Assembly: GCA_043799545.1 (NCBI GenBank)
Contig: JAZDNO010000008.1
Coordinates: 1-33,154, forward strand
Source of the DNA: Methanobacteriota archaeon
GTDB taxonomy: Archaea; Thermoplasmatota; Thermoplasmata; SG8-5; DAIRED01
Length of the DNA stretch: 33,154 nt
Direction of reading: 5' to 3'
Shown here: in pieces, positions 2,336 through 33,154 of the stretch
How positions within the stretch are numbered: the stretch's first letter is position 1
Layout: the number at the start of each line of letters is the position of its first letter
The notes under the pieces: model-generated
The model's input: only the letters and a program-made list of their open reading frames with translations
What the model was told of the DNA's origin: nothing
Database searches by the model: none
Program-made: the position numbers and the translations under genes

Positions 2336-3310
2336 ATGCCCAATCCGTTCGGCAAATATCCGATCAGCTCCGCCGTGAAAAAATACATAGAAGCGACAAG
2401 GCACTTCTACGCCCCAGAAACGCAAGCCTACCGCGGGAGGAAGCTCCGGTACATACTGAACGCGATGAAAACATTAGGCGCTCCGGAGAACCCGACGAAG
2501 ATAGGCAAAGAGGATATACTGAACTGGATGGACTGGATGGAGAAGAAAGGGCTTGAAGGCTCCACCAAGCGCAAGGCGTTGAGCATCCTGGGCGACTACC
2601 TCAGATACTACGACAACGACTGCGTCAAGAAGATGCTCGACAAGAGGTTGCTGAGGATGCCGTCGGACGCGCGAAAGGAGATAAAACACCTGCCCGAGGA
2701 CGCTATCCAGCGCATCCACAACACGACGCTGACGATGGAGGGCTGGGAAGGCGCGGTCGCCAGGTTCATAACGATGGCATACCCGTACACGGGCCTGCGC
2801 CCGAGCGAGCTGAGGACGATAGCCTACGCGGACTTGGACCTTTCCACATGGACGATGGCGGTCAAGCATCCAAAGGGTGAACGGTCATACGGAACGCAGA
2901 GGGTCATTGGCATACCAAGCATGATTCGAGAGGCGGTCGCCGATTACCTGGAGGAGCGCAGAACCTACCTGGAGGCGCACGGCGCCCCCGAGAACTCTGC
3001 ACCCTTGATACCGTACATCTGTCGCAAAGGCGTTGAATACTGGCGCTACCAAAGCCTGGAGAACCTGAAACTGGAGATAGAGAAGCAGGTAGGGTTCAAG
3101 TTCAAGCTGAAGGACTACCGCTCCTCGTTCTGCCAGATTGCGATAGACCGGGGCGCAGCGTTGCAGGCAGTATCGAAAGTAATGGGGCACGGAACAACCA
3201 AGACAACTGAGTCCTACTATGGACGAATGAGGGACGAACCCGCGATTGCGGAGATAGAAAGGGCGTTGTCGAAGCCCAACGTCAAAAATCTAATACCCCC
3301 CGTACTATGA
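2336..3310 (+). CDS. int: Tyrosine recombinase/integrase
   Basis: TGLRPSEL (R), KHPK (K), KDYR (K/H-x-x-R), MGH and TTESYY (H, Y); ends 20 bp from a tRNA 3' end; start codon uncertain (2336 or 2171). Confidence 0.9.
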   Translation: MPNPFGKYPISSAVKKYIEATRHFYAPETQAYRGRKLRYILNAMKTLGAPENPTKIGKEDILNWMDWMEKKGLEGSTKRKALSILGDYLRYYDNDCVKKMLDKRLLRMPSDARKEIKHLPEDAIQRIHNTTLTMEGWEGAVARFITMAYPYTGLRPSELRTIAYADLDLSTWTMAVKHPKGERSYGTQRVIGIPSMIREAVADYLEERRTYLEAHGAPENSAPLIPYICRKGVEYWRYQSLENLKLEIEKQVGFKFKLKDYRSSFCQIAIDRGAALQAVSKVMGHGTTKTTESYYGRMRDEPAIAEIERALSKPNVKNLIPPVL

Positions 3311-3330: not shown

Positions 3331-3404
3331 TGGGCCCACCCGGATTCGAACCGGGGATCTTCACCTTGTCAAGGTGACGTCATAACCAACTGGACCATAG
3401 GCCC
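3331..3404 (-). tRNA. tRNA-Val(GAC), CCA not encoded
   Basis: Reverse strand GGGCCTA...TCACC-TTGACAA-GGTGA...CCCGG-TTCGAAT-CCGGG-TGGGCCC-A folds as a cloverleaf. Confidence 0.95.
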
Positions 3405-22022: not shown

Positions 22023-22153
22023 CCTCGCAAAGAAAGCATTTGGAGCAAAGTAACTCGGACCTCGCCTGCTCGGCTCGACCGGCATTTTCACCTCGCAAAG
22101 AAAGCATTTGGAGCAAAGTAACTCGGACCTCGCCTGCTCGGCTCGACCGGCAT
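22023..22153. repeat. Intergenic tandem repeat, 2 x 63 bp identical (period 68)
   Basis: CCTCGCAAAGAAAGCATTTGGAGCAAAG...GACCGGCAT at 22023-22085 and 22091-22153; partial degenerate copy at ~22001-22020. Confidence 0.9.
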
Positions 22154-23224: not shown

Positions 23225-25984
23225 ATGGCCCGAGAGGTTCCGGTTGGGCGCGAGGACGAGCTCAGGAGGCTTATGGGTTCGCTGGCCTCGGCCGCGAAGG
23301 GCAGCGGCTGCGCGGTCGTGGTCTCGGGGGAGCCGGGCATAGGCAAGAGCGTCCTGGCGGCCGAGGTCGCCGGGCGGGCCCGGGAGATGGGGTTCGCAGT
23401 TACCGCCGGCGCTGCCAGCGGGGAATCGATGGAGCCGTTCCTCGTCTTCTCGGGGGCGCTCGATGCGCTTGCTGATGGGCGGCTCTTCGAGCTGGACGAG
23501 CGGACGGGCTTCTCGTCAGTCATGGCGCTGGACACGGCGAGCGGCGAGGTCGTGGCTAGGGCAGGCGGGGTCTCGCCGGGGCCTACGGCCGAGACTTTTT
23601 CCGGCATGCTCGCAGCCGTCCAGAGCTTCATCGGCGACTCGCTGCGGGTGGGGGGCGGCTCGCTCGGGCGTTTGGAGCACGGCGACACCAAGATACTCAT
23701 CGAGCCGTCGGGGGGCATCTCGATTGCCGCAGTCCTGGAAGGGGCCGAGGGCCCGGAGATGCGAGCGGCCCTCAAGGCCGCGGCGGAGAGGATTGCCCGC
23801 GAGCCAGGCGATGTCCAGCGCGCGCTCGACTCTCTCGCGGACGCACGCTTTTCCGTCAAGCGGGGGCTCGATGGGGTCAAGCTTGAGAACGAGCGAATCA
23901 GGATCGCCGGCGCTGTGCTGGACGCCGTCCACGCGGCGGCGGCTGAGAAGCCCCTTTTGCTGGTCCTGGAGGACCTCCACTGGGCGGACGAATCGTCGCT
24001 CTTCGCGCTGCGCTACGTCGCCAGGAACCTGGGCGGCTCGAAGGCCATGCTGCTCGCCACCGCCAGGCCGTCCGAGGGCTGCGGCTTCGCCCGAACCCTG
24101 GCGGCCATGAGGGGGGAAGGCTCCGTCGCGGAGGTCGCTCTCGCTGGCCTCGGCCCCGCAGGCGTGCGCGGCCTGGTCGATTCTTTCGCCAGCCCGAACG
24201 ATTTTCCGTTGGCGTTCGCGGAGCGCCTCCACCGCGACTGCGCTGGCAACCCGTTCTTCGTGTCGGAGCTGCTGAGGCAGATGCTGGCGGAGGGGGCGCT
24301 AACACGGCGCGACGGAAGATACACACTGGCACGCGACGGCTACGCTATGCCCTCGTCCGTCGGCGAGGTCGTGAACCGGAGGCTCGAGTCCCTCGACCCT
24401 GACGCGATGGCGCTCGCCGAGTACGCATCGTGCATGGGGCGCGAGTTCGAGGAGGGCGCGGTCCTCTCCGCGCCGTCGCTGGAGAACCCCCGGGCGTCGC
24501 TGGAGAAACTCCGCGCCGCGGGCATCGTCGCGGTCGAAGGCGGGTCGGGCGCGTTCTCCCACGCGCTCTTCCGGGCGGCCGTCTACGAAAGCATGGCGCC
24601 CCGCTGGCGCTCCGCGCACCACAGGAGCATCGGCGAGCATTACGAGCGTGCGTACGAGGGCAGGCTGGACGAGGCCGCCTACGAGCTCGCGAGGCACTTC
24701 TCCGCGACCGCGGAGCACGCCAAGGCCTACTCGTACAGCGCGATGGCGGCGGAGGCCGCTGAGTCTTCCTTCGCGCCGGAGCAGGCGCTCTCCCTGTACG
24801 CGGAGGCGCTGTCGCGCGTCGGGCGCGTGCCGGAGCCACGCATCGGCGCTTCCGGGCTGCGCGAGCGCATGGGAGACCTGAGGACGCTCCTTGGGGAGTA
24901 CCCGGCGGCGATTGCCGACTACGAGCGGGCGTTCGAAGACGGGGGCGGCGCGGCCGGGAGGGCCGCGCTAAGGAGGAAGTCCGCGCTCGTCCGCTCGCGC
25001 CAGGGGGACCACGCCGGCGCGATGGCCGAATGCCATGCAGGCCTGGAATTGATGGGGAGCGCGGAATGCGGCGAGAAGGCCCGCCTCCTGGGCCTGCGCG
25101 GCTGGACCGAGTACATCATGGGGAGCGCAGACGCGGCGCTCGCGACAATCGGCGAGGCGCTCGGGATTGCCGAGCGGACTGGGGATGCTGAGGAGGTCGC
25201 GATGTGCCACCACCGCATCGGGACGATTCACGGCTCGCGATGCGAGTTCTCGCTCGCGACCGAGGAGCTTTCGCTGGCGCTCTCCGCTCGCGAGGCGCTG
25301 GGCGACCTTCGCGGCATGGCCGCGACGGAGGGAAACCTCGGGATTACCTTCAGGGACATGGGCGACCTGGCCGGGGCGGCGGAGCACCACGGGCGGAGCC
25401 TCGATCTGTTCAGGAAGCTCGGCGACAGGGCGGGCTTGGCGAACGCGCTGAACAACCTGGGCGTCGTGGCCCGGGACAGGGGAGACCTCCGGGGGGCGTA
25501 CGAGCGCCAGGACGAGGCGTTCCGCATCCGCGAGCGCATCGGCGACATGCGCGGCATAGCCATGTCGCACAACAACATGGGGAACATCCTGAAGGACATG
25601 GGGGAGTTCGGGCGGGCCCTGGAGCACCACCGGCGGAGCCTGGCGCTGCGCGAGACTACGGGGGACCGCGGCGGCGCGGCCGCGTCGCATTTCAACATCG
25701 GGGACGCGCTCATGGCGGCAGGGAGGACCGGCGAGGCCCTGTCCGAGCTCCGGGAGTCCATGGCCCTCTGCCGCGAGACGGGCTACGACCACCTGCGCGT
25801 GCACGTCCACTACGGCCTGGCGGAGGCGCTGGAGAAGACTGGCGACGGCGCGGGGGCGCTGGCGGAGGAGGAGGAGGGGCTCGCGCTGGCGCGGAAGATG
25901 GGGCTCGGGGAGGAGACCGCGAAGGGGGAGGCGCTCGCCGCGCGGCTGGACTCTTTGCGCGGGCGGAAGGCCGGCGCTCCGTGA
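23225..25984 (+). CDS. STAND-class AAA ATPase with TPR repeats (paralog 1)
   Basis: VGREDEL, GEPGIGKS Walker A, LLLVLEDLHWAD Walker B, GNPFF, C-terminal TPRs (ANALNNLGVVA, AMSHNNMGNIL). Confidence 0.9.
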   Translation: MAREVPVGREDELRRLMGSLASAAKGSGCAVVVSGEPGIGKSVLAAEVAGRAREMGFAVTAGAASGESMEPFLVFSGALDALADGRLFELDERTGFSSVMALDTASGEVVARAGGVSPGPTAETFSGMLAAVQSFIGDSLRVGGGSLGRLEHGDTKILIEPSGGISIAAVLEGAEGPEMRAALKAAAERIAREPGDVQRALDSLADARFSVKRGLDGVKLENERIRIAGAVLDAVHAAAAEKPLLLVLEDLHWADESSLFALRYVARNLGGSKAMLLATARPSEGCGFARTLAAMRGEGSVAEVALAGLGPAGVRGLVDSFASPNDFPLAFAERLHRDCAGNPFFVSELLRQMLAEGALTRRDGRYTLARDGYAMPSSVGEVVNRRLESLDPDAMALAEYASCMGREFEEGAVLSAPSLENPRASLEKLRAAGIVAVEGGSGAFSHALFRAAVYESMAPRWRSAHHRSIGEHYERAYEGRLDEAAYELARHFSATAEHAKAYSYSAMAAEAAESSFAPEQALSLYAEALSRVGRVPEPRIGASGLRERMGDLRTLLGEYPAAIADYERAFEDGGGAAGRAALRRKSALVRSRQGDHAGAMAECHAGLELMGSAECGEKARLLGLRGWTEYIMGSADAALATIGEALGIAERTGDAEEVAMCHHRIGTIHGSRCEFSLATEELSLALSAREALGDLRGMAATEGNLGITFRDMGDLAGAAEHHGRSLDLFRKLGDRAGLANALNNLGVVARDRGDLRGAYERQDEAFRIRERIGDMRGIAMSHNNMGNILKDMGEFGRALEHHRRSLALRETTGDRGGAAASHFNIGDALMAAGRTGEALSELRESMALCRETGYDHLRVHVHYGLAEALEKTGDGAGALAEEEEGLALARKMGLGEETAKGEALAARLDSLRGRKAGAP

Positions 25985-26045: not shown

Positions 26046-26831
26046 TCACGACGGCCTCAACGTGCCAACGAAGACCTGCCAGGCGAGCGCGGACTTAGCG
26101 ACGAGGCTCAGCACGACGTACATCCTCTCGCCGTATAGGTAATCCTTCCACTTCCCCACTTTCTTGTACTGGAGCACCATGTTGATTGCGAAGACGTTGA
26201 AGAAGAGCCCCATCGAGAGGAAGATGTAGTAGACGAACGTCGGCGGGCCGCCTCCGTCTCCGCCGGCTCCGAAGAGCCAGATGGCGATGACGACCCACGG
26301 GACCGCGCCCGCGATGCACCCGAAGATGAACGTCGACCAATCGGTCTTCTGGGTGAACTGGTTGTACTTCTCCATCTCCAGCCCGAAGAGAATCATCATC
26401 ATGTTGAGGAAGAACGCCAGCATGAGCGTCCCCACGTCGTACACCCCGACGAGCATCGAGATTACGACAATCATCACGGAAGAGCTGAGCGCGTACTCGT
26501 ACCAGCGGTACTTGTTGATGCCCTTCTTCAGCCCCTCCACGTACTTCGGGTAGAGGGATGTGGCTATGAGGAGATGCGCGGTCGCGGATATGAACAGGAA
26601 GCACGCGACCAGGGGGCCTATCCGCAGGTCGAAGAGAACCTCAGATGCCGGGACTAGGGCCGGCATCCCGCCCGCGCCCGTGCCCGGAGCCGCCTCGAGG
26701 AAGCCCCTCGTGACGGGCAGCGTGAAATCGTTGCTCAGCGCCAGCATTGCCAAACCCTGGACGAGGTGGAATATCCCCATCACTAGGTTGAAACTCTTCA
26801 GCTTCCCGAACTTGATGTCTTCTTCGGACAT
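26046..26831 (-). CDS. Heliorhodopsin (261 aa)
   Basis: FNLVMGIFHLVQ, AHLL, NKYRWYEYALSSS, GCIAGAVPW, YGERMYVVLSLVAKSALAWQ (retinal Lys in SLVAK); true start ATG 26831 inside ORF 26046..27281. Confidence 0.95.
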   Translation of the reverse strand: MSEEDIKFGKLKSFNLVMGIFHLVQGLAMLALSNDFTLPVTRGFLEAAPGTGAGGMPALVPASEVLFDLRIGPLVACFLFISATAHLLIATSLYPKYVEGLKKGINKYRWYEYALSSSVMIVVISMLVGVYDVGTLMLAFFLNMMMILFGLEMEKYNQFTQKTDWSTFIFGCIAGAVPWVVIAIWLFGAGGDGGGPPTFVYYIFLSMGLFFNVFAINMVLQYKKVGKWKDYLYGERMYVVLSLVAKSALAWQVFVGTLRPS

Positions 26832-26929
26832 GAAGGATGCTATTGCGTTGTGATACATATATTGATTCGCTAAAAGGTTAGGGGCCCTCAAGCGCATCAG
26901 ATAAATAACCCGACGCCCATTGCAGCCCG

Positions 26930-29851
26930 ATGAGCGGATTCGTGGGGCGGGAGGCCGAGCTAAAAGTGCTGGTCGACGCGCTCGGACGCGCCTCCGCCGG
27001 GGCAGGCTCCTGCGTGCTCGTCTCCGGCGAGCCAGGAATCGGGAAGTCTCGGCTGGTCGAGGAGGTAAAAGCCCGCGCGAGGGCATCGGGCTTCGCCGTT
27101 CTGGAGGGCGCGTGCTCCGCAGACGGCGGCGAGCCCCTGCTTCCGTTCTCGAAGGCGCTGGGGGCCTCCCTGTCGCTCGGGAGGGGATTCGCGTCGTTCT
27201 CCTGTGCGATGCTGCTCGACAGCTCGGGTAATGCCTCGGCGCAGGGGGGCGATTCCGGAATCGACGCGGCGCCCCTGGCAAGCATGCTCGCCGCCGTTCA
27301 GAGCTTCGTCAGGGACTCCTTCAGCGGCGGCGGCTCCCTCGGGCTGCTGGAACACGGCGGGAGGAGGATACTGGTCGAGAAGGCGGGTGAGGGGGCGCTG
27401 GCCGCCGTCATCGAGTCCGAGGAATCGCCGGAGATGCGTCCCGCTGTGAAAGCCGCGGCGGAGGCCATTGCCAGGGAGCCCGCCTCTGCCGCGCGGGCGC
27501 TGGAATCTCTCACGCGGAGGAGCTTCGCGCTCCGCAAGGACTTGGACGGGGTCAAGCTCGAGAACGAGCGCATCCGAATCGCCAACGGCGTTCTGGATGC
27601 CCTGCGCGGCAAGTCCTCCTGCTGCCCGGTCCTGCTCGCTCTCGAGGACGTGCATTGGGCCGACGACTCGACCCTGTTCGTGCTGGGCTACCTCGCGCGC
27701 AACCTGGGCGGCATGCGGTGCGTGCTCTTGGCCACCGCCCGCCCGTCCGAAGGCGCCGCCGTGCAGAAGGCGCTCGCAGGCATGCGCGCCGACGGCACCA
27801 TCGCGGAGGTCGCGCTGGCCGGGCTGGACCTGGCCGGGGTCAGGGCGCTCGTCGATTCTTCGTGCGGCCCGAACGATTTTCCGCAGGATTTCGCAGAGCG
27901 CCTGCACCGGGACTGTGCGGGAAACCCGTTCTTCGTCTCGGAGCTTCTGAAGCAGATGCGCGCCGACGGGGCAATCGCCTTCGCCAACGGCAGGCATTCG
28001 CTGGTTCGGGACGACTACGCGATGCCCTCGTCCATCGGCGAGGTCGTGCGGCTCAGGCTCGAGTCCCTCGACCCGGACGCGATGGCGATGGCCGAGTACG
28101 CCTCGTGCATCGGCAGGGAGTTCATCGTCGACGCCGCGCTGTCTGCGCCGAACGTCGCCGAGGCGAGCGGTGCCATCGAGCGCCTTCGCGAGGCCGGGCT
28201 CGTCAGCGTCGCGGGGGATTCCGGCGCCTTCGGCCACGCCCTCTTCCACGCCGCGGTCTACGCGAGCATCGCGCCGAGATGGCTGGTCGCGCACCACCGG
28301 CGCATCGGCGACTATTACGAGCGGCGGTTCGCGGACGGTCTGGACGAGGCTGTCTACGAGTTGTCGAGGCACTACTCGCTCGGCGAGGAGCACTCAAAGG
28401 CGTTCCGCTACTCGGTCATGGCCGCGGAGAGGGCGGAGGGCCAGTATGCCCCGGAGGTCGCCGTGAAGCACTACGCCCGCGCCATCGCGTCCATCCTGAA
28501 ATGCTCCGAGCTGGCCGGCGAGGAGGCGAGGGTCCGGACTCGGATGGGGGAGAACTACCATTTCATGGGCAGCCTCGAAGACGCGGAGAGTGCTTACCGC
28601 GAGGCGCTGGAGGTGGCGGAGCGTCGCGGGGAGAGCCCAGCAATCGCCCGCGCCTGCGTCGCGCTCGGCCACCTGATGTGCCTCAAGCCGGACTACGACC
28701 AGGCGCTCGCGCTCACGGAACGGGGGATGGCCATGTTCGCCGCCGCCGGGAACGACGCGGGCGTCTTCTCCGCCATGACGAACCAGGGCTTCGTGCACTT
28801 CTACAAGGGGGAGCACGCGCAGGCTCTCGAGCTCTACTCAAGGCAGCTCGCCCTCGCCAAGAAGATGGGGGACAGGCTCCGCGCCGGAAAGGTCCTGAGC
28901 GACATCGGCGGGATATACTGGGAGACTGGGGAGTACGACAAGGCGGTGGAGAACAACCTAACATACCTCGGGGTCGCGGAGGAGCTCGGGGACAAGGGCG
29001 CGATGAAGGACGCGCTGTCCGGCCTTGCGAACGTCACGTTCTACCAGCGCAAGTTCGCGGAGGCCACGGGATACTACCGCAGGCTCGTGGACGTCGCCCA
29101 CGAGTCTAAGGATATCTTCTCGGAGAACCTCGGCCTGATTGGGCTCGGCGCGACTTACGAGGCGCTTGGAAGATACGGCGAAGCACTCGACGCCGTCGAG
29201 CGCGTGCTAGCGGGGGCGAGGCGGACGGACTATAGGCAAGGGCTCCCGTACGCGCTCATCTACCGCGGCAGGGCTGCGATGGGCTCCGGCGACTACGAGC
29301 TCGCCCTATCGAGCTTCCAGGAGGCGCTCGACGTCGCGGTATCCACGGGAACCAAGCGCTCGATATGCTTCGCAGAGTCTTGCCTCGGGCAGCTCTGCAG
29401 GAGGACGGGCCGCGCCATCGAGGCGGAACAGCACCTCGATTCCGCCGCCTCCGTCGCCCGGGAGGCGGGGAACTTCCACGTCCTGGCCGACAGCCTGAGC
29501 CAGATGGCGGAGATTCGCTTCGAGGCGGGACGGTTCGACGATGCTAGGGCGCTCAACGCCGAGGCGATGTCCGTCGCCGGGGAGATACACAGAGAGGGCG
29601 CGCTCTTCTCGGCGCGCGTTTTGGAGGCTCGGCTCCTTTCGGTCCAGGATAAAGTGGCCGGGGCTGCGAGGCTCGAGGCGATGCTCGCTGGGGCGAACGA
29701 GCGCGAGCGCGCGGAGCTGACCTACCAGCTCTACCGCATGACCGGCGACGCAGCGAGGAGGGCGGATTCCAGGGCGTTGTATTCTGCGCTCTACCGGACC
29801 GTGCCGAACGCGATGTACAGGGAGCGCATGGCGGAGCTCGAACTAGGGTGA
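26930..29851 (+). CDS. STAND-class AAA ATPase with TPR repeats (paralog 2)
   Basis: FVGREAEL, GEPGIGKS, LLALEDVHWAD, GNPFF, many TPRs; clearly homologous to 23225..25984. Confidence 0.9.
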   Translation: MSGFVGREAELKVLVDALGRASAGAGSCVLVSGEPGIGKSRLVEEVKARARASGFAVLEGACSADGGEPLLPFSKALGASLSLGRGFASFSCAMLLDSSGNASAQGGDSGIDAAPLASMLAAVQSFVRDSFSGGGSLGLLEHGGRRILVEKAGEGALAAVIESEESPEMRPAVKAAAEAIAREPASAARALESLTRRSFALRKDLDGVKLENERIRIANGVLDALRGKSSCCPVLLALEDVHWADDSTLFVLGYLARNLGGMRCVLLATARPSEGAAVQKALAGMRADGTIAEVALAGLDLAGVRALVDSSCGPNDFPQDFAERLHRDCAGNPFFVSELLKQMRADGAIAFANGRHSLVRDDYAMPSSIGEVVRLRLESLDPDAMAMAEYASCIGREFIVDAALSAPNVAEASGAIERLREAGLVSVAGDSGAFGHALFHAAVYASIAPRWLVAHHRRIGDYYERRFADGLDEAVYELSRHYSLGEEHSKAFRYSVMAAERAEGQYAPEVAVKHYARAIASILKCSELAGEEARVRTRMGENYHFMGSLEDAESAYREALEVAERRGESPAIARACVALGHLMCLKPDYDQALALTERGMAMFAAAGNDAGVFSAMTNQGFVHFYKGEHAQALELYSRQLALAKKMGDRLRAGKVLSDIGGIYWETGEYDKAVENNLTYLGVAEELGDKGAMKDALSGLANVTFYQRKFAEATGYYRRLVDVAHESKDIFSENLGLIGLGATYEALGRYGEALDAVERVLAGARRTDYRQGLPYALIYRGRAAMGSGDYELALSSFQEALDVAVSTGTKRSICFAESCLGQLCRRTGRAIEAEQHLDSAASVAREAGNFHVLADSLSQMAEIRFEAGRFDDARALNAEAMSVAGEIHREGALFSARVLEARLLSVQDKVAGAARLEAMLAGANERERAELTYQLYRMTGDAARRADSRALYSALYRTVPNAMYRERMAELELG

Positions 29852-29914: not shown

Positions 29915-30370
29915 ATGAAGTATGCGGAGCGCCGTTCGAGGCACACAATCACGATGCTCACCGACCACATCGTGTTCACGCCGAAGTTCCGGGCGCCGAT
30001 ACTGGTGGGTCCGGTCGGACGGGCGTGCGACAGGATGATACGGGACGTTTGCGCCAACATCGGTGTCTCCGTGCTGGACCTGGCAGTGAACGTCGACCAC
30101 GTGCATTTGTTCATCAGGTACCCGCCGGAGCTTTCCGCGTCGAAGGTGGCCGAGAAGATAAAAACCAACGCCTCCCGCGAGCTGCGGGAGAAGTTCCCTG
30201 AATTGAGGGCGTGGTGCAGGGACGCGCTTTGGGCTCCGGGCTGCTACCACGGATCAGTCGGTCAGGGCTTCGACGTTGTGGAGAGGTACATTTCTGCGCA
30301 GAGAAACGAGGAGGTGGCGCATGGGGAGAGGAGGAGGCTTGACGGGGTTGCTGGAGGTTATAGAAAATGA
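29915..30370 (+). CDS. tnpA: IS200/IS605-family Y1 HUH transposase (TnpA), no tnpB
   Basis: HIVFTPKFR, DHVH (HUH), LWAPG, ERYISAQ (catalytic Y); TATA-like TTAAATA at ~29886. Confidence 0.9.
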   Translation: MKYAERRSRHTITMLTDHIVFTPKFRAPILVGPVGRACDRMIRDVCANIGVSVLDLAVNVDHVHLFIRYPPELSASKVAEKIKTNASRELREKFPELRAWCRDALWAPGCYHGSVGQGFDVVERYISAQRNEEVAHGERRRLDGVAGGYRK

Positions 30371-30396: not shown

Positions 30397-30403
30397 GAAA
30401 CCC

Positions 30404-30455
30404 CGGTAGCCAGCCAGGTTATGGCCGAGGACCAATCGGACTCCGTATCCACAGC
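30404..30455 (+). pseudogene. Degenerate partial copy of the downstream tRNA
   Basis: AGCCAGGT, GGCCGAGGACCAAT and CCGTATCC are shared in order with 30497-30581. Confidence 0.6.
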
Positions 30456-30496
30456 TTACATGATTTCCACATCTTATAAATATTTCTATCGAGCGT

Positions 30497-30581
30497 GCCG
30501 GGGTGGCCAAGCCAGGTATGGCGATTGGCCGAGGACCAATAGGATCCCGTATCCTCGCGGGTTCAAATCCCGTCCCCGGCG
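30497..30581 (+). tRNA. Atypical class II tRNA: anticodon GAG (Leu) with C33 and Ser-like body
   Basis: GCCGGGG/CCCCGGC acceptor, G73, ATTGG-CCGAGGA-CCAAT anticodon arm, AGGAT-CCCGT-ATCCT variable arm, GCGGG-TTCAAAT-CCCGT T-arm; TTATAAAT ~20 bp upstream. Confidence 0.8.
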
Positions 30582-30787
30582 CGGATCCTTAATAGAAAGG
30601 AAGGGGGGGAGGAAATCCTTTACCCAAGTCTCGCGACCGCCCGATGGGTGGCGAGGCCGCACGCATATAGTTAGCAACAAGCCTCGTCTGTAAGGGCGGG
30701 GTATAGAAGCTTATATTAGCTATTATTACTATATTGTATAGGATATAATATGATGGGAGCGCGTGACTTGGGCGAGGGCGAATAATA

Positions 30788-30815
30788 GTCACATGTGACA
30801 AAATCATTTAAATAT
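30788..30815 (+). promoter_or_regulatory. Palindrome GTCACATGTGAC followed by TATA box TTTAAATA
   Basis: Perfect 12-bp palindrome at 30788-30799; TATA ~22 bp before ATG 30830. Confidence 0.55.
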
Positions 30816-30829
30816 ACTCTATACGATGT

Positions 30830-31216
30830 ATGTTTATGGATAATAAAGTAAGAAAAAGAATAATAATCTTATTGGGAACTATTTTAATAATTTCACTTAT
30901 AATACTAGCATATTATTTTCCATTTTTTGGTTACTGGCGAATAGAATCGGGAATGACTGAGACAACAGTAAAAAACATCATGGGCACACCTGATTTTATT
31001 AATGGATTTACTATCGGAGAGCCATTTTTTGGCCCCAGACCAGATTTGCCAAATGGTACATATTTTATCTCCTGGACATATCATGTTAGAGATCAAATTA
31101 TAGGCATTACTTTTATATCTTCTTTAGATTACGATAACATTACTGGATATCATATTTCGACCACAGATTATGTCGTTTTTGAGAAACATAATCATTCAGA
31201 TAGTATTGTGTACTAA
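30830..31216 (+). CDS. Cassette ORF 1: TM anchor plus SmpA/BamE-like domain
   Basis: AT-rich; N-terminal TM helix; IESGMTETTVKNIMGTPD fits the I..GMT...V...G.P pattern. Confidence 0.7.
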   Translation: MFMDNKVRKRIIILLGTILIISLIILAYYFPFFGYWRIESGMTETTVKNIMGTPDFINGFTIGEPFFGPRPDLPNGTYFISWTYHVRDQIIGITFISSLDYDNITGYHISTTDYVVFEKHNHSDSIVY

Positions 31217-31224
31217 CTAAATTT

Positions 31225-31528
31225 TGAGCCCGACGCCCTCGACCGTGCACTTCATACTATCGACGAGAGGTCGCGTGGATGCCTCGCCGGAGCATCCCCG
31301 TCCAAGATTTGACGGCGGGACAGGGGTGCGCACGGTTTTCGCGTATTGCAGCTCCATTGGCTGGTTGTATCCCAACTTTGCCGTGGTACTGTATGCCAGC
31401 ACTTGGGAGCGGGTGGAAGAGCGAAAATCTGAGGTCCAACCGAAGGACGGGGTAGAGAATTATTTAAGGAGTGACGTACATACAGAGCTTGTGAAACAAG
31501 CGTATAGGAACCGTCACTTGGGAGCGAA
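31225..31528 (+). repeat. Structured inter-ORF repeat R1
   Basis: Shares CCTCGACCGTG, GAGGTCGCGTGGATGCCTCGCCGGAGCATC, GTGCGCACGGTT, AATCTGAGGT, GGACGGGGTAGA and ATAGGAA-CGTCACTTGGG with R2 and R3. Confidence 0.92.
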
Positions 31529-31542
31529 CGGAGGAGTGGTCG

Positions 31543-31962
31543 ATGCTAAGTAAACGAGATTATCAGGTTATTATAATATCAACAATTACTATTTTTCTGT
31601 TAGTCCATCTTACTTTTTTATTCATGGGTTTATGGTATTCTGTTGAATTTGTTTTTTATGAGTTTATTTTTGTTTTTTTATCCGTTGGAATCCCAATAAT
31701 AATTTGGTGCACGTTATCAACACATCATGATTTAAGATTGATACGATACTGGTTTATTCCAATAGTATACATGATGTTTATGGATATTTATTGGCTAATG
31801 CAAGGATATTATCATCTTCGTGCTTTTCCAACCGATTCGTTTGAATATTATGCAGCCTCTGAATTATTAGAAAGCCAATGGCTACATTTAGGAGTGTGGT
31901 TGGTGATATTATTCATTGGTAGGTTTTGGATATCCAAGATGCAATATAAGACCACTCCGTAG
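31543..31962 (+). CDS. Cassette ORF 2: hypothetical multi-TM protein
   Basis: AT-rich, 139 aa, hydrophobic segments; fills the space between R1 and R2. Confidence 0.75.
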   Translation: MLSKRDYQVIIISTITIFLLVHLTFLFMGLWYSVEFVFYEFIFVFLSVGIPIIIWCTLSTHHDLRLIRYWFIPIVYMMFMDIYWLMQGYYHLRAFPTDSFEYYAASELLESQWLHLGVWLVILFIGRFWISKMQYKTTP

Positions 31963-32258
31963 TGAAGCTCCCTCGACCGTGAACTCCATCCCATCGACGG
32001 GAGGTCGCGTGGATGCCTCGCCGGAGCATCTCCGTCCATGTATTGACGGCGGGACAGGAGTGCGCACGGTTCGAGCGACTCAGGCAATCTGGGCTGGTTG
32101 TATCCCCACTTTTGGGAGGAACTGCATTTCTGCTGTTTGGAGCGGGATACAAAGCGAGAATCTGAGGTTCAACCGAAGGACGGGGTAGATATTTATTTAA
32201 GGCACGCCACGTATTTCAGCGCCGTGAGCGCGAATAGGAACCGTCACTTGGGAGCGAA
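31963..32258 (+). repeat. Structured inter-ORF repeat R2
   Basis: 77 nt (32001-32077) identical to R3 (32704-32780); same blocks as R1. Confidence 0.92.
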
Positions 32259-32260
32259 GG

Positions 32261-32668
32261 ATGAGTGACTTGAAGAAGGAACTGGATTATCAAATTAACA
32301 AGTTAGTAAATGATTTATCTCACACAGAAGTTTATCAGCGAAAACATGCGGCTTGGACATTAGCTAGACTTGCACAAAAAGGGAAAGCAGAAAAGATTGT
32401 TAGTGCTGGTGCAGTTTCGAAGCTGGCTAAATGTCTATATGATAACGAATTGATTGTGCGATATCGTGTGGTTTGGGCATTAAGTATGTTAGCAAAACAT
32501 GGACAAAAGAAAGCGGTTCTTGAAGCTGATGTGGAAGCCACTCTTAGCAATATGATTGATGACAACAATGAAGTAGAAATATGCCATCCACAAACAAATG
32601 AGATGATTTATACTACACTTGGTAATCTGGCTAAAGAAGCAATAGGATATCTACATAACGAATCCTGA
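32261..32668 (+). CDS. Cassette ORF 3: HEAT/armadillo-repeat protein
   Basis: RKHAAWTLARLA...GAVSKLAKCL..VRYRVVWALSMLA; AT-rich; its TGA stop is the first bases of R3. Confidence 0.75.
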   Translation: MSDLKKELDYQINKLVNDLSHTEVYQRKHAAWTLARLAQKGKAEKIVSAGAVSKLAKCLYDNELIVRYRVVWALSMLAKHGQKKAVLEADVEATLSNMIDDNNEVEICHPQTNEMIYTTLGNLAKEAIGYLHNES

Positions 32669-32958
32669 AGCGACCTCGACCGTGAACACCCAGTAATCGA
32701 CGAGAGGTCGCGTGGATGCCTCGCCGGAGCATCTCCGTCCATGTATTGACGGCGGGACAGGAGTGCGCACGGTTCGAGCGGCTCAGACATACTGGGCTGG
32801 TTGTATTCCCACTTTGGGGAGGAACTGCATTTCTGCTGTTTGGAGCGGGATACAAAGCGAGAATCTGAGGTCCAACCGATGGACGGGGTAGAGATTTTAA
32901 ATAGGTCCAATCTCATAACAGAGCCCATGAAATGGGCGAATAGGAAACGTCACTTGGG
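32666..32958 (+). repeat. Structured inter-ORF repeat R3
   Basis: Same conserved blocks as R1 and R2. Confidence 0.92.
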
Positions 32959-33154
32959 GATGAGCGTCTCCGCCGTAGGTTGTGGGCTCGTCTAGAATGC
33001 ACATGTCCGTAGGCGTTCGGTGGTCCCCAAATCCTTTTCAACGCTGGCTATATGAAACGAAAATTCCAAGTAGTAGAGGCGACATGTATGCACAAGGCGG
33101 GTTCGCAACGGCTATCGGGCTTTGCCGAAAGGGGGCGCGTTTTTAGCCCCCCGT

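Follow-up and report, generated by a model that had tools for sequence, protein, structure and literature searches.

Large structured repeats separate single-gene cassettes in arrays of one order of Thermoplasmata and are linked to an IS200-type transposase gene

A new repeat family in archaeal cassette arrays

The right end of contig JAZDNO010000008.1 (assembly GCA_043799545.1), from an uncultured Thermoplasmata archaeon, carries an array in which small open reading frames (ORFs) alternate with copies of a large repeat, here named R. The window analyzed is this whole 33-kb contig (33,154 nucleotides, nt); the genome comprises 2.06 Mb with ~ 59% GC. R is a new, previously undescribed structured repeat family, and it is the inter-cassette unit of an undescribed gene-cassette array system found in one order of Thermoplasmata. 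As the best reading, which we hold tentatively and with somewhat less than even confidence, R is a folded single-strand recombination site and promoter of a cassette platform driven by a Y1 transposase.

At this end of the contig, a Y1 transposase gene and a tRNA-Leu gene are followed by an AT-rich stretch, in which three small ORFs (30830-31216, 31543-31962 and 32261-32668) are interleaved with three GC-rich direct repeats of ~ 300 nt. A preceding reading made from the letters of the DNA (the sequence-only reading) had reported the repeat, and three co-oriented units on the + strand were indeed found: R1 (31226-31533, 316 bits with the covariance model), R2 (31960-32263, covariance model and alignments) and R3 (32663-32969, covariance model), which are 79-86% identical to each other. 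The contig stops 185 nt past R3, so the cassette that starts behind it is cut by the contig end at 33154. The first ~ 55 nt behind R3 (GATGAGCGTCTCCGCCGTAGGTTGTGGGCTCG..., 32965-33020) recur at L046:1733-1790, L051:83-140 and C20:24555-24609 of the window genome (G000), standing behind repeats in the sister genome and, in the window genome, at two places without a repeat; a common cassette may have them as its conserved beginning.

R was also found on four other contigs of the window genome, in a sister genome (41 blastn matches) and in several other genera. A search pattern comprising the two most conserved motifs of R (D3-to-CACTTRG) was scanned against 185,579 species genomes. This gave 36 loci in metagenome-assembled genomes assigned to Thermoplasmata, ‘Methanomassiliicoccales’ or ‘Methanobacteriota’, and 14 single bacterial matches, a count that chance would give for this pattern. 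Within the class, the pattern matched 12 of the 22 genomes of the window’s order and none among the 379 genomes that belong to other orders; reversing the pattern as a control yielded no match. The covariance model recovered R in 15 of these 22 genomes, including all seven high-quality ones, with ~ 150 copies in total. Three pattern matches were obtained in IMG/VR viral contigs, none of which was confirmed by the covariance model.

The copies are ~ 230-330 nt long overall (270-327 nt in families f1 and f2, shorter in f3 and f4). A protein-coding role was ruled out, as an end-to-end open frame is present in only 2 of 30 copies and the lengths ignore multiples of three. When the window was searched with Rfam release 15 at the gathering threshold, only two tRNAs were returned. 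With E ≤ 10 on 30400-33154, the top non-tRNA matches were snR87 (22 bits) and DUF3800-XI (15.5 bits, with 37.8 needed); the latter, located on R3, was dropped because other R copies did not reproduce it. Six related loci searched at E ≤ 0.1 gave tRNA only. No description of such a cassette system was found in the literature.

Structure and covariation of R

At least five covarying helices (P1, P2, P3, P4 and a late hairpin) and a long-range pairing (P6) are present on the coding strand of R. In a MAFFT alignment of 30 near-full copies, 91% of the cells in six helices were paired and 21 of 34 base pairs changed on both sides, which was reached in none of 500 shuffles; when the partner was slid by 1-3 columns, only 31-41% of the cells remained paired. 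A model-fitted alignment of 143 distinct copies from four families showed 88.8% pairing, with double-sided changes in 30 of 34 pairs, again not equaled in 500 shuffles. The latter alignment leans toward the covariance model, and the MAFFT alignment showed the same picture. Compensatory changes, as proposed in the sequence-only reading, are real and far beyond chance in both sets of copies. Its view that selection acts on structure and not on sequence had been staked on covariation persisting in a larger alignment and on R falling outside the known Rfam families, and both held.

In R2 (all + strand), P1 pairs 31972-31978 with 32003-32009, P2 pairs 32021-32023 with 32067-32069, P3 pairs 32026-32033 with 32057-32063 and P4 pairs 32070-32076 with 32154-32160, while the late hairpin occupies 32219-32231; each of the five is backed by many double changes. 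P3 is hypervariable in sequence, but its complementarity is always kept and perfectly Watson-Crick. The center of P4 has Watson-Crick pairs in some copies and tandem G·A/A·G pairs in others. P6 (32162-32168 with 32246-32252) joins the segment just 5' of a conserved CAAC to the terminal ACTTGG. Of the 69 copies examined, every one can form at least 3 base pairs (bp) of it and 68 can form 4-8 bp; where a G changes to A, the partner is T or the position is unpaired, never C. A further candidate, P5 (GCCYCG with CGRGG; 32015-32020 with 32181-32186), is conserved and 91% paired in the 143 copies; it was not accepted as a proven helix, since its variation is one-sided save for two single cells. R also contains a TATA-like stretch (32190-32201 in R2) and long conserved unpaired stretches. 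Two copies in genome G001 (L023:1052-1394 and L043:137-479) carry a 21-nt AT-rich insertion in the P1 loop, and the middle domain is 34 nt shorter in about a third of the copies, both of which indicate that R is modular.

The fold drawn in the sequence-only reading was mostly wrong, although the observation behind it is real in part. The late hairpin, given there as GCTTG-TGAAA-CAAGC, GCGC-CGTGA-GCGC and GCCCA-TGAAA-TGGGC in the three units, stands. The other stems (outer CCGTG/CACGG, CGAC/GTCG, GATGC/GCATC, CCGTC/GACGG, TTGTATCCC/GGGATACAA and GTYC/GGAC) found no support: their covariation score was 0.053, against 0.053 in shuffled alignments (224 of 500 shuffles scored as high), and 81.2% of their cells were paired, against 81.6% after shuffling. 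These are the stems that a minimum free energy (MFE) fold of a single sequence yields, and the stability of such folds is not above that of shuffles, with unremarkable z-scores of 0.05 (RNA, + strand), -1.69 (RNA, - strand) and -1.36 (DNA, + strand).

Cassettes and array organization

R alternates with single, mostly AT-rich ORFs and is strictly co-oriented with them. Across 81 cassette intervals, the median length was 608 nt, and 82% of each interval was filled by a sense-strand ORF. Sampled cassette products comprised ParE (three), PIN (three), HicB and Fic/Doc proteins, together with many that lack a family match. In the window, the left array end (30690-30775, + strand) is a degenerate 3' part of R with a D3-like AGGGCGGGGT, a TATA-like stretch and GTGACTTGGG. 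The three ORFs behind it, all on the + strand, encode 128 amino acids (aa) in cassette 0 (AT-rich, no family match), 139 aa in cassette 1 (no family match; likely a membrane protein, with a hydrophobic N-terminus) and 135 aa with HEAT/Arm repeats in cassette 2.

Cassette content turns over between close relatives. The orthologous locus of G001 aligns with that of the window genome at 77% identity over the Y1 gene, the tRNA-Leu gene and the left-end remnant. Homology ends 3 nt after GTGACTTGGG (30763-30772), the two loci being homologous only up to CACTTGGG, and the first cassettes beyond are unrelated. Cassettes of sister genomes diverge exactly from the CACTTGG motif onward. Whole cassettes recur in other genomes and in other array contexts, with 73-76% identity end to end between families. 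Those shared within a genus are 92-94% identical, and their flanking repeats are less alike. Near-identical cassettes of two genomes gave only rough boundaries, with high identity from about CACTTGG to ~ 25 nt into P1. Empty R-R junctions, with only a 12-23-nt mini-hairpin between the units, were also observed. The array ends bear complementary partial units, with the 3' part of R at the left and the 5' part at the right. The 13-kb AT-rich island at C12:58482-74411 of the window genome has only an R 3' part at its left (59636-59714) and only an R 5' part at its right (72905-72984); a second Y1 paralogue lies divergently at its left, and a tyrosine integrase gene lies ~ 950 nt past its right end.

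Each cassette is moreover closed by a helix of its own, P0. Between the CACTTGG of one R and P1 of the next, there is an outer 5-7-bp helix of a few matched types (GACGACC/GGTCGG, GATGAGC/GCTCAG and GGCGAAC/GTGAGCC, the last with tandem G·A), and inside it an 8-15-bp perfect inverted repeat, which is cassette-specific and placed at matched distances from both repeats. Complementarity of at least 9 bp between a cassette’s own flanks was found for 43 of 66 cassettes, compared with 9 of 391 mismatched cassette pairs. In homologous cassettes from different families, the arms keep pairing by compensatory change (GGGC../..GCCC versus GAGC../..GCTC). In cassette 1, the left arm GGAGTGGTC (31533-31541, + strand) overlaps a Shine-Dalgarno (SD)-like GGAGG and ends 1 nt before the ATG; the right arm GACCACTCC (31950-31958, + strand) is its perfect complement, and a conserved GTAG comes next. 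When the flanks of 14 cassettes were cofolded, they formed an outer helix of 5 bp, an internal loop that was either 3x3 or ~ 12x13, and an arm of 9-15 bp; staggered 3-nt bulges were absent. From these cofolds and inspection, P0 was also tried as a bulge-helix-bulge (BHB), a kink-turn (k-turn) and a box C/D motif, none of which fitted.

The layout of the arrays and their toxin-antitoxin cassettes resemble those of integrons, which reportedly occur in Archaea (bioRxiv 10.1101/2022.02.06.479319). R could be an attC site of unusual length, on which an IntI tyrosine recombinase acts in a classical integron or in a cluster of attC sites lacking an integron integrase (CALIN). We give this explanation hardly any credence. 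R measures 230-330 nt, as against about 57-141 nt for attC. Inspection of the alignments by eye, with no attC model run, showed R to be bounded by CACTTGG and a CCTCGACC-type P1, with no RYYYAAC/GTTRRRY (R/L) boxes at its ends. None of the four Phage_integrase (PF00589) matches of the window genome, namely two on C10, C12:73938 (the gene past the right end of the C12 island) and C25:2690, lies at an array start.

The Y1 transposase and its link to the arrays

Directly upstream of the array, the window contains a gene for an IS200/IS605-type Y1 (HUH) transposase (29915-30370, + strand; Pfam Y1_Tnp, 88.8 bits). The protein scores 109 bits with NCBIfam transpos_IS200 (cut-off 55) and has PDB relatives 2ec2 and 2a6m; with REP_Tyr_transpos, the model for REP-associated tyrosine transposases (RAYTs), it reaches 19.1 bits, below the cut-off of 80. 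The HUH motif and the catalytic Tyr are invariant across 13 Y1 homologues, and the gene is, judging by its sequence, catalytically intact. Orthologues with 54-89% identity are present, mostly once per genome, in 16 of the 22 genomes of the order. In 11 genomes, which represent four families, the gene and the first R are ≤ 4.8 kb apart; the gene is in tandem to the array in five (G000, G001, G002, G003 and G005) and divergent from it in six (G006, G015, G016, G019, G020 and G021). All three genes with a Y1_Tnp domain in the window genome are located at array starts (C25, C12 and C28). The one on C12 is a paralogue with 23-28% identity (whole-length alignment and local match). The first ORF of the C28 array (C28:10918-12276, - strand, equal to L010:1750-3108) encodes a 452-aa fusion of Y1_Tnp (36.7 bits) and a Shedu SduA_C nuclease-like domain (24.3 bits, below the Pfam cut-off of 27 bits).

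Between the Y1 gene and the array lies a tRNA-Leu(GAG) gene (30497-30582, + strand). At the same position, G006 has a tRNA with the long extra arm of tRNA-Leu (L121 5058-5145; anticodon not read). The anticodon/variable-arm part of the window’s tRNA-Leu (30526-30554) recurs with 90% identity over 29 nt at 30422-30450, 104 nt upstream of the tRNA gene and just past the Y1 ORF. The copy resembles a scar left by an old integration or duplication.

As R is multi-copy, non-coding and Y1-linked, and forms tandem empty copies, it could be a selfish non-autonomous derivative of IS200/IS605 (similar to palindrome-associated transposable elements, PATEs, or miniature inverted-repeat transposable elements), which is moved by Y1 in trans and has piled up in AT-rich islands with no cassette role. 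The ends of IS200/IS605 elements such as IS608 are built with subterminal hairpins, to which two helices of R may correspond: P1, at a distance of 12 nt from the 5' edge, and the late hairpin, which is 11-20 nt away from the edge at CACTTGG. R nevertheless has at least three further helices, and its edges are not tied to cleavage sites. Copies are hardly ever scattered: nearly all belong to co-oriented arrays in which every interval has one ORF, and the array ends hold complementary partial units. Insertion of a transposon does not account for the sequences outside R, which pair with each other across the ORF and covary in each cassette, and no full-length parent insertion sequence (IS) with the same ends was found. 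We consider the selfish-element explanation improbable.

Pairing in DNA or RNA

The base pairs of R bear on whether it acts as DNA or as RNA. Among roughly 1,220 pairs in the covarying helices of the best 60 copies, 1,171 were Watson-Crick, 12 were G·U and 15 were A·C, and the P0 arms contained G·U in 2 of 714 pairs. In the tRNA stems of the window genome, which served as control, 28 G·U and 6 A·C were counted in 629 pairs. Strong covariation is thus combined with G·U that is no commoner than A·C, unlike what the tRNA controls show for structured RNA. Such scarcity of G·U suggests that the pairing takes place in DNA. The hypervariable, perfectly Watson-Crick stems and the single-stranded DNA (ssDNA)-specific enzyme alongside point in the same direction. 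The sequence-only reading had taken G-T pairs seen only on the plus strand as a sign that this strand is folded, an argument that proved wrong, as the covarying helices show G·U just as seldom as A·C. The coding strand is instead suggested to be the folded one by the tandem G·A pairs (C·T if the opposite strand were folded), the N-GNRA-type loops and the strict co-orientation with the ORFs.

R also carries putative expression signals. Its A/T stretch matches the TATA box and B recognition element (BRE) of the window genome’s tRNA promoters, with BRE-like purines and TTTATTAA or TTTTATAG. In families f3 and f4, the stretch lies in the loop of a covarying hairpin, and the predicted start falls at the boundary between CACTTGG and a following G; in f1 and f2 the predicted start is near the late hairpin. 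The left P0 arm overlaps an SD-like GGAGG/AGG just before the start codon.

These signals suit a role of R at the RNA level, a serious rival even if we judge it unlikely on the whole. The promoter in R would then drive each cassette, the 5' leader would pair past the stop codon through P0, and P1-P4 of the next R would form a structured 3' untranslated region that stabilizes, processes or translationally gates the mRNA of an AT-rich gene of foreign origin; Y1 would simply be encoded nearby and serve a separate role. The fixed place of the TATA/BRE-like stretch and its predicted starts, the overlap of the left arm with the SD-like motif and the strict co-orientation of R with the ORFs all agree with this. 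So do the N-GNRA-type loops, the alternation of tandem G·A with Watson-Crick pairs in P4 and outer P0, and the long conserved unpaired stretches, which suggest tertiary or protein contacts. Against a role as RNA stands the scarcity of G·U, which is depleted about 4-15 fold in comparison with the tRNA stems of the window genome and no more frequent than A·C, a pattern atypical for RNA under structural selection. Such a role leaves unexplained the Y1 linkage in 11 genomes and the three Y1 paralogues at array starts; tandem empty units persist without ORFs, and the MFE stability is not above shuffles. If R does act as RNA, it would represent a new class of large structured RNA with a gene looped out by a private helix, and the near absence of G·U would still need explaining.

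A catalytic function is very improbable in our view. A large self-cleaving or otherwise catalytic RNA, cutting polycistronic cassette transcripts in the manner of clustered hammerheads that flank single genes, would account for the complex multi-helix fold, the highly conserved unpaired nucleotides and the placement between every ORF pair. R, however, matched no Rfam ribozyme family even at permissive thresholds, its helices are depleted in G·U and no BHB or k-turn fits P0, while the promoter-like signal in R itself makes punctuation of a transcript unnecessary.

A putative single-strand recombination site

The sequence-only reading had offered a ribozyme, a scaffold RNA or a recombination site as functions of R, an interpretation that is partly supported. 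The recombination site gains most, because R is the inter-cassette unit tied to a Y1 transposase that acts on ssDNA and because its helices avoid G·U; for the ribozyme and the scaffold RNA the data speak neither way. According to the recombination-site reading, the helices of R would form in single-stranded DNA of the coding strand and, together with the cassette-closing stem, would present the cassette boundaries, CACTTGG at the left and the base of P1 at the right, to the Y1 enzyme. The enzyme would excise and insert cassettes as IntI does at folded attC sites, and the BRE/TATA-like promoter in R would let each cassette be expressed on its own.

Several points weigh against this mechanism. 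No cleavage or recombination point has been mapped, and no known Y1 substrate comes near R in size and complexity. Several features of R, namely the tandem G·A pairs, the GNRA-like loops, its co-orientation with the ORFs and the promoter/SD-like signals, are compatible with RNA as well. Archaeal Okazaki fragments are short, so that long single-stranded stretches are not obviously available. Homologous recombination between the 300-nt repeats could shuffle cassettes without a dedicated enzyme. The array ends break at varying positions of R (~ columns 78, 91, 118 or 235, or after D3), and decay or homologous recombination fits such truncation points as well as a site-specific cut does; the use of the array ends as markers of the crossover point was dropped because of this variation. 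Y1 homologues outside the order exist without R, the close ones being multi-copy IS200 with pseudogenes; R was not found there, and the ends of true IS200 copies (family f6, the nearest multi-copy relatives) show no likeness to R.

In its widest form, our proposal would add the arrays to integrons and CRISPR-like arrays as a third type of platform by which prokaryotes capture genes. Single-gene cassettes would be swapped via large folded ssDNA sites by a domesticated HUH transposase of the IS200 type, with a closing helix for each cassette and a promoter for each site, in a system confined to, and vertically kept in, an uncultured Thermoplasmata order. We regard this as conceivable but doubtful. 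If Y1 does exchange cassettes at folded sites, structure-specific single-strand recombination for gene stockpiling evolved at least twice with unrelated enzymes, Archaea own a native cassette platform, and a new, possibly programmable, HUH-based DNA insertion system would be at hand.

Other features of the contig

Elsewhere on the contig, two paralogous genes for STAND-type NTPases (AAA_16) with TPR (23225-25984 and 26930-29851) have ~ 70% GC, compared with 59% for the genome, and flank a 411-aa heliorhodopsin gene (26046-27281, - strand) with a ~ 160-aa N-terminal extension. A perfect 68-nt tandem duplication (1.9 copies) is located at 22023-22153. At the other contig end, a gene with a tyrosine recombinase domain (2690-3220) adjoins tRNA-Val (3331-3404), the usual signature of an integrated element. 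The GC skew of the contig follows gene direction.

Comparison with known systems

Genes enclosed by RNA stems are known from the BHB of archaeal rRNA, from rRNA intervening sequences with ORFs and from clustered hammerheads. These share with the arrays a long-range helix across a gene and a structured element that recurs between genes. The cassette flanks differ from them in that no BHB motif, k-turn or known ribozyme fits and the helices lack G·U; the archaeal arrangement of bulge (3 nt), helix (4 bp) and bulge (3 nt) at the base of the enclosing stem was absent from the 14 cassette-flank cofolds.

Repetitive extragenic palindromic (REP) elements, their bacterial interspersed mosaic elements (BIMEs) or REPINs, occur with RAYT (TnpA-REP) transposases (PMC5581495). 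Both systems have a single-copy, domesticated Y1 transposase flanked by structured repeats as its presumed substrates, and a conserved GTAG beside a stem. The protein described here scores as IS200 and not as RAYT, though, and the repeats are about 10 times longer and clustered in cassette arrays instead of forming genome-wide intergenic hairpins.

IS200/IS605 elements and their non-autonomous PATE derivatives are moved by TnpA in a single-strand ‘peel and paste’ process (PMC5027513). The TnpA of the arrays is a true member of this family in which HUH and Tyr are intact. The hairpins near the two edges of R, on one strand, may be equivalent to subterminal ones, R lacks terminal inverted repeats, and activity would be expected on the top (coding) strand as ssDNA. 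The differences are that the TnpA gene is single-copy, vertically inherited and located outside the repeats, and that the repeats are arrayed with cargo ORFs between them; dispersed insertions at a fixed tetra-/pentanucleotide, with ends shared with a full-length IS, were not seen among the copies. No target tetranucleotide or cleavage site was identified for R, whose ends are unlike those of related true IS200 copies.

Integrons share most with the arrays. In both, co-oriented arrays are formed by cassettes that measure about 600 nt, contain one ORF each and often carry toxin-antitoxin or unknown genes, and the separating sites are conserved more in structure than in sequence. One array adjoins the recombinase gene while others lack it, and cassette content changes between close relatives. 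The neighboring enzyme, however, is an HUH Y1 transposase and not a tyrosine recombinase, and the site has 230-330 nt and at least five helices, where attC is a hairpin of 60-140 nt that bears R/L boxes. The arrays further differ in having a helix particular to each cassette around its ORF, a promoter-like box in every unit and an archaeal host. By analogy, the array system looks like an integron-style cassette system built from unrelated parts.

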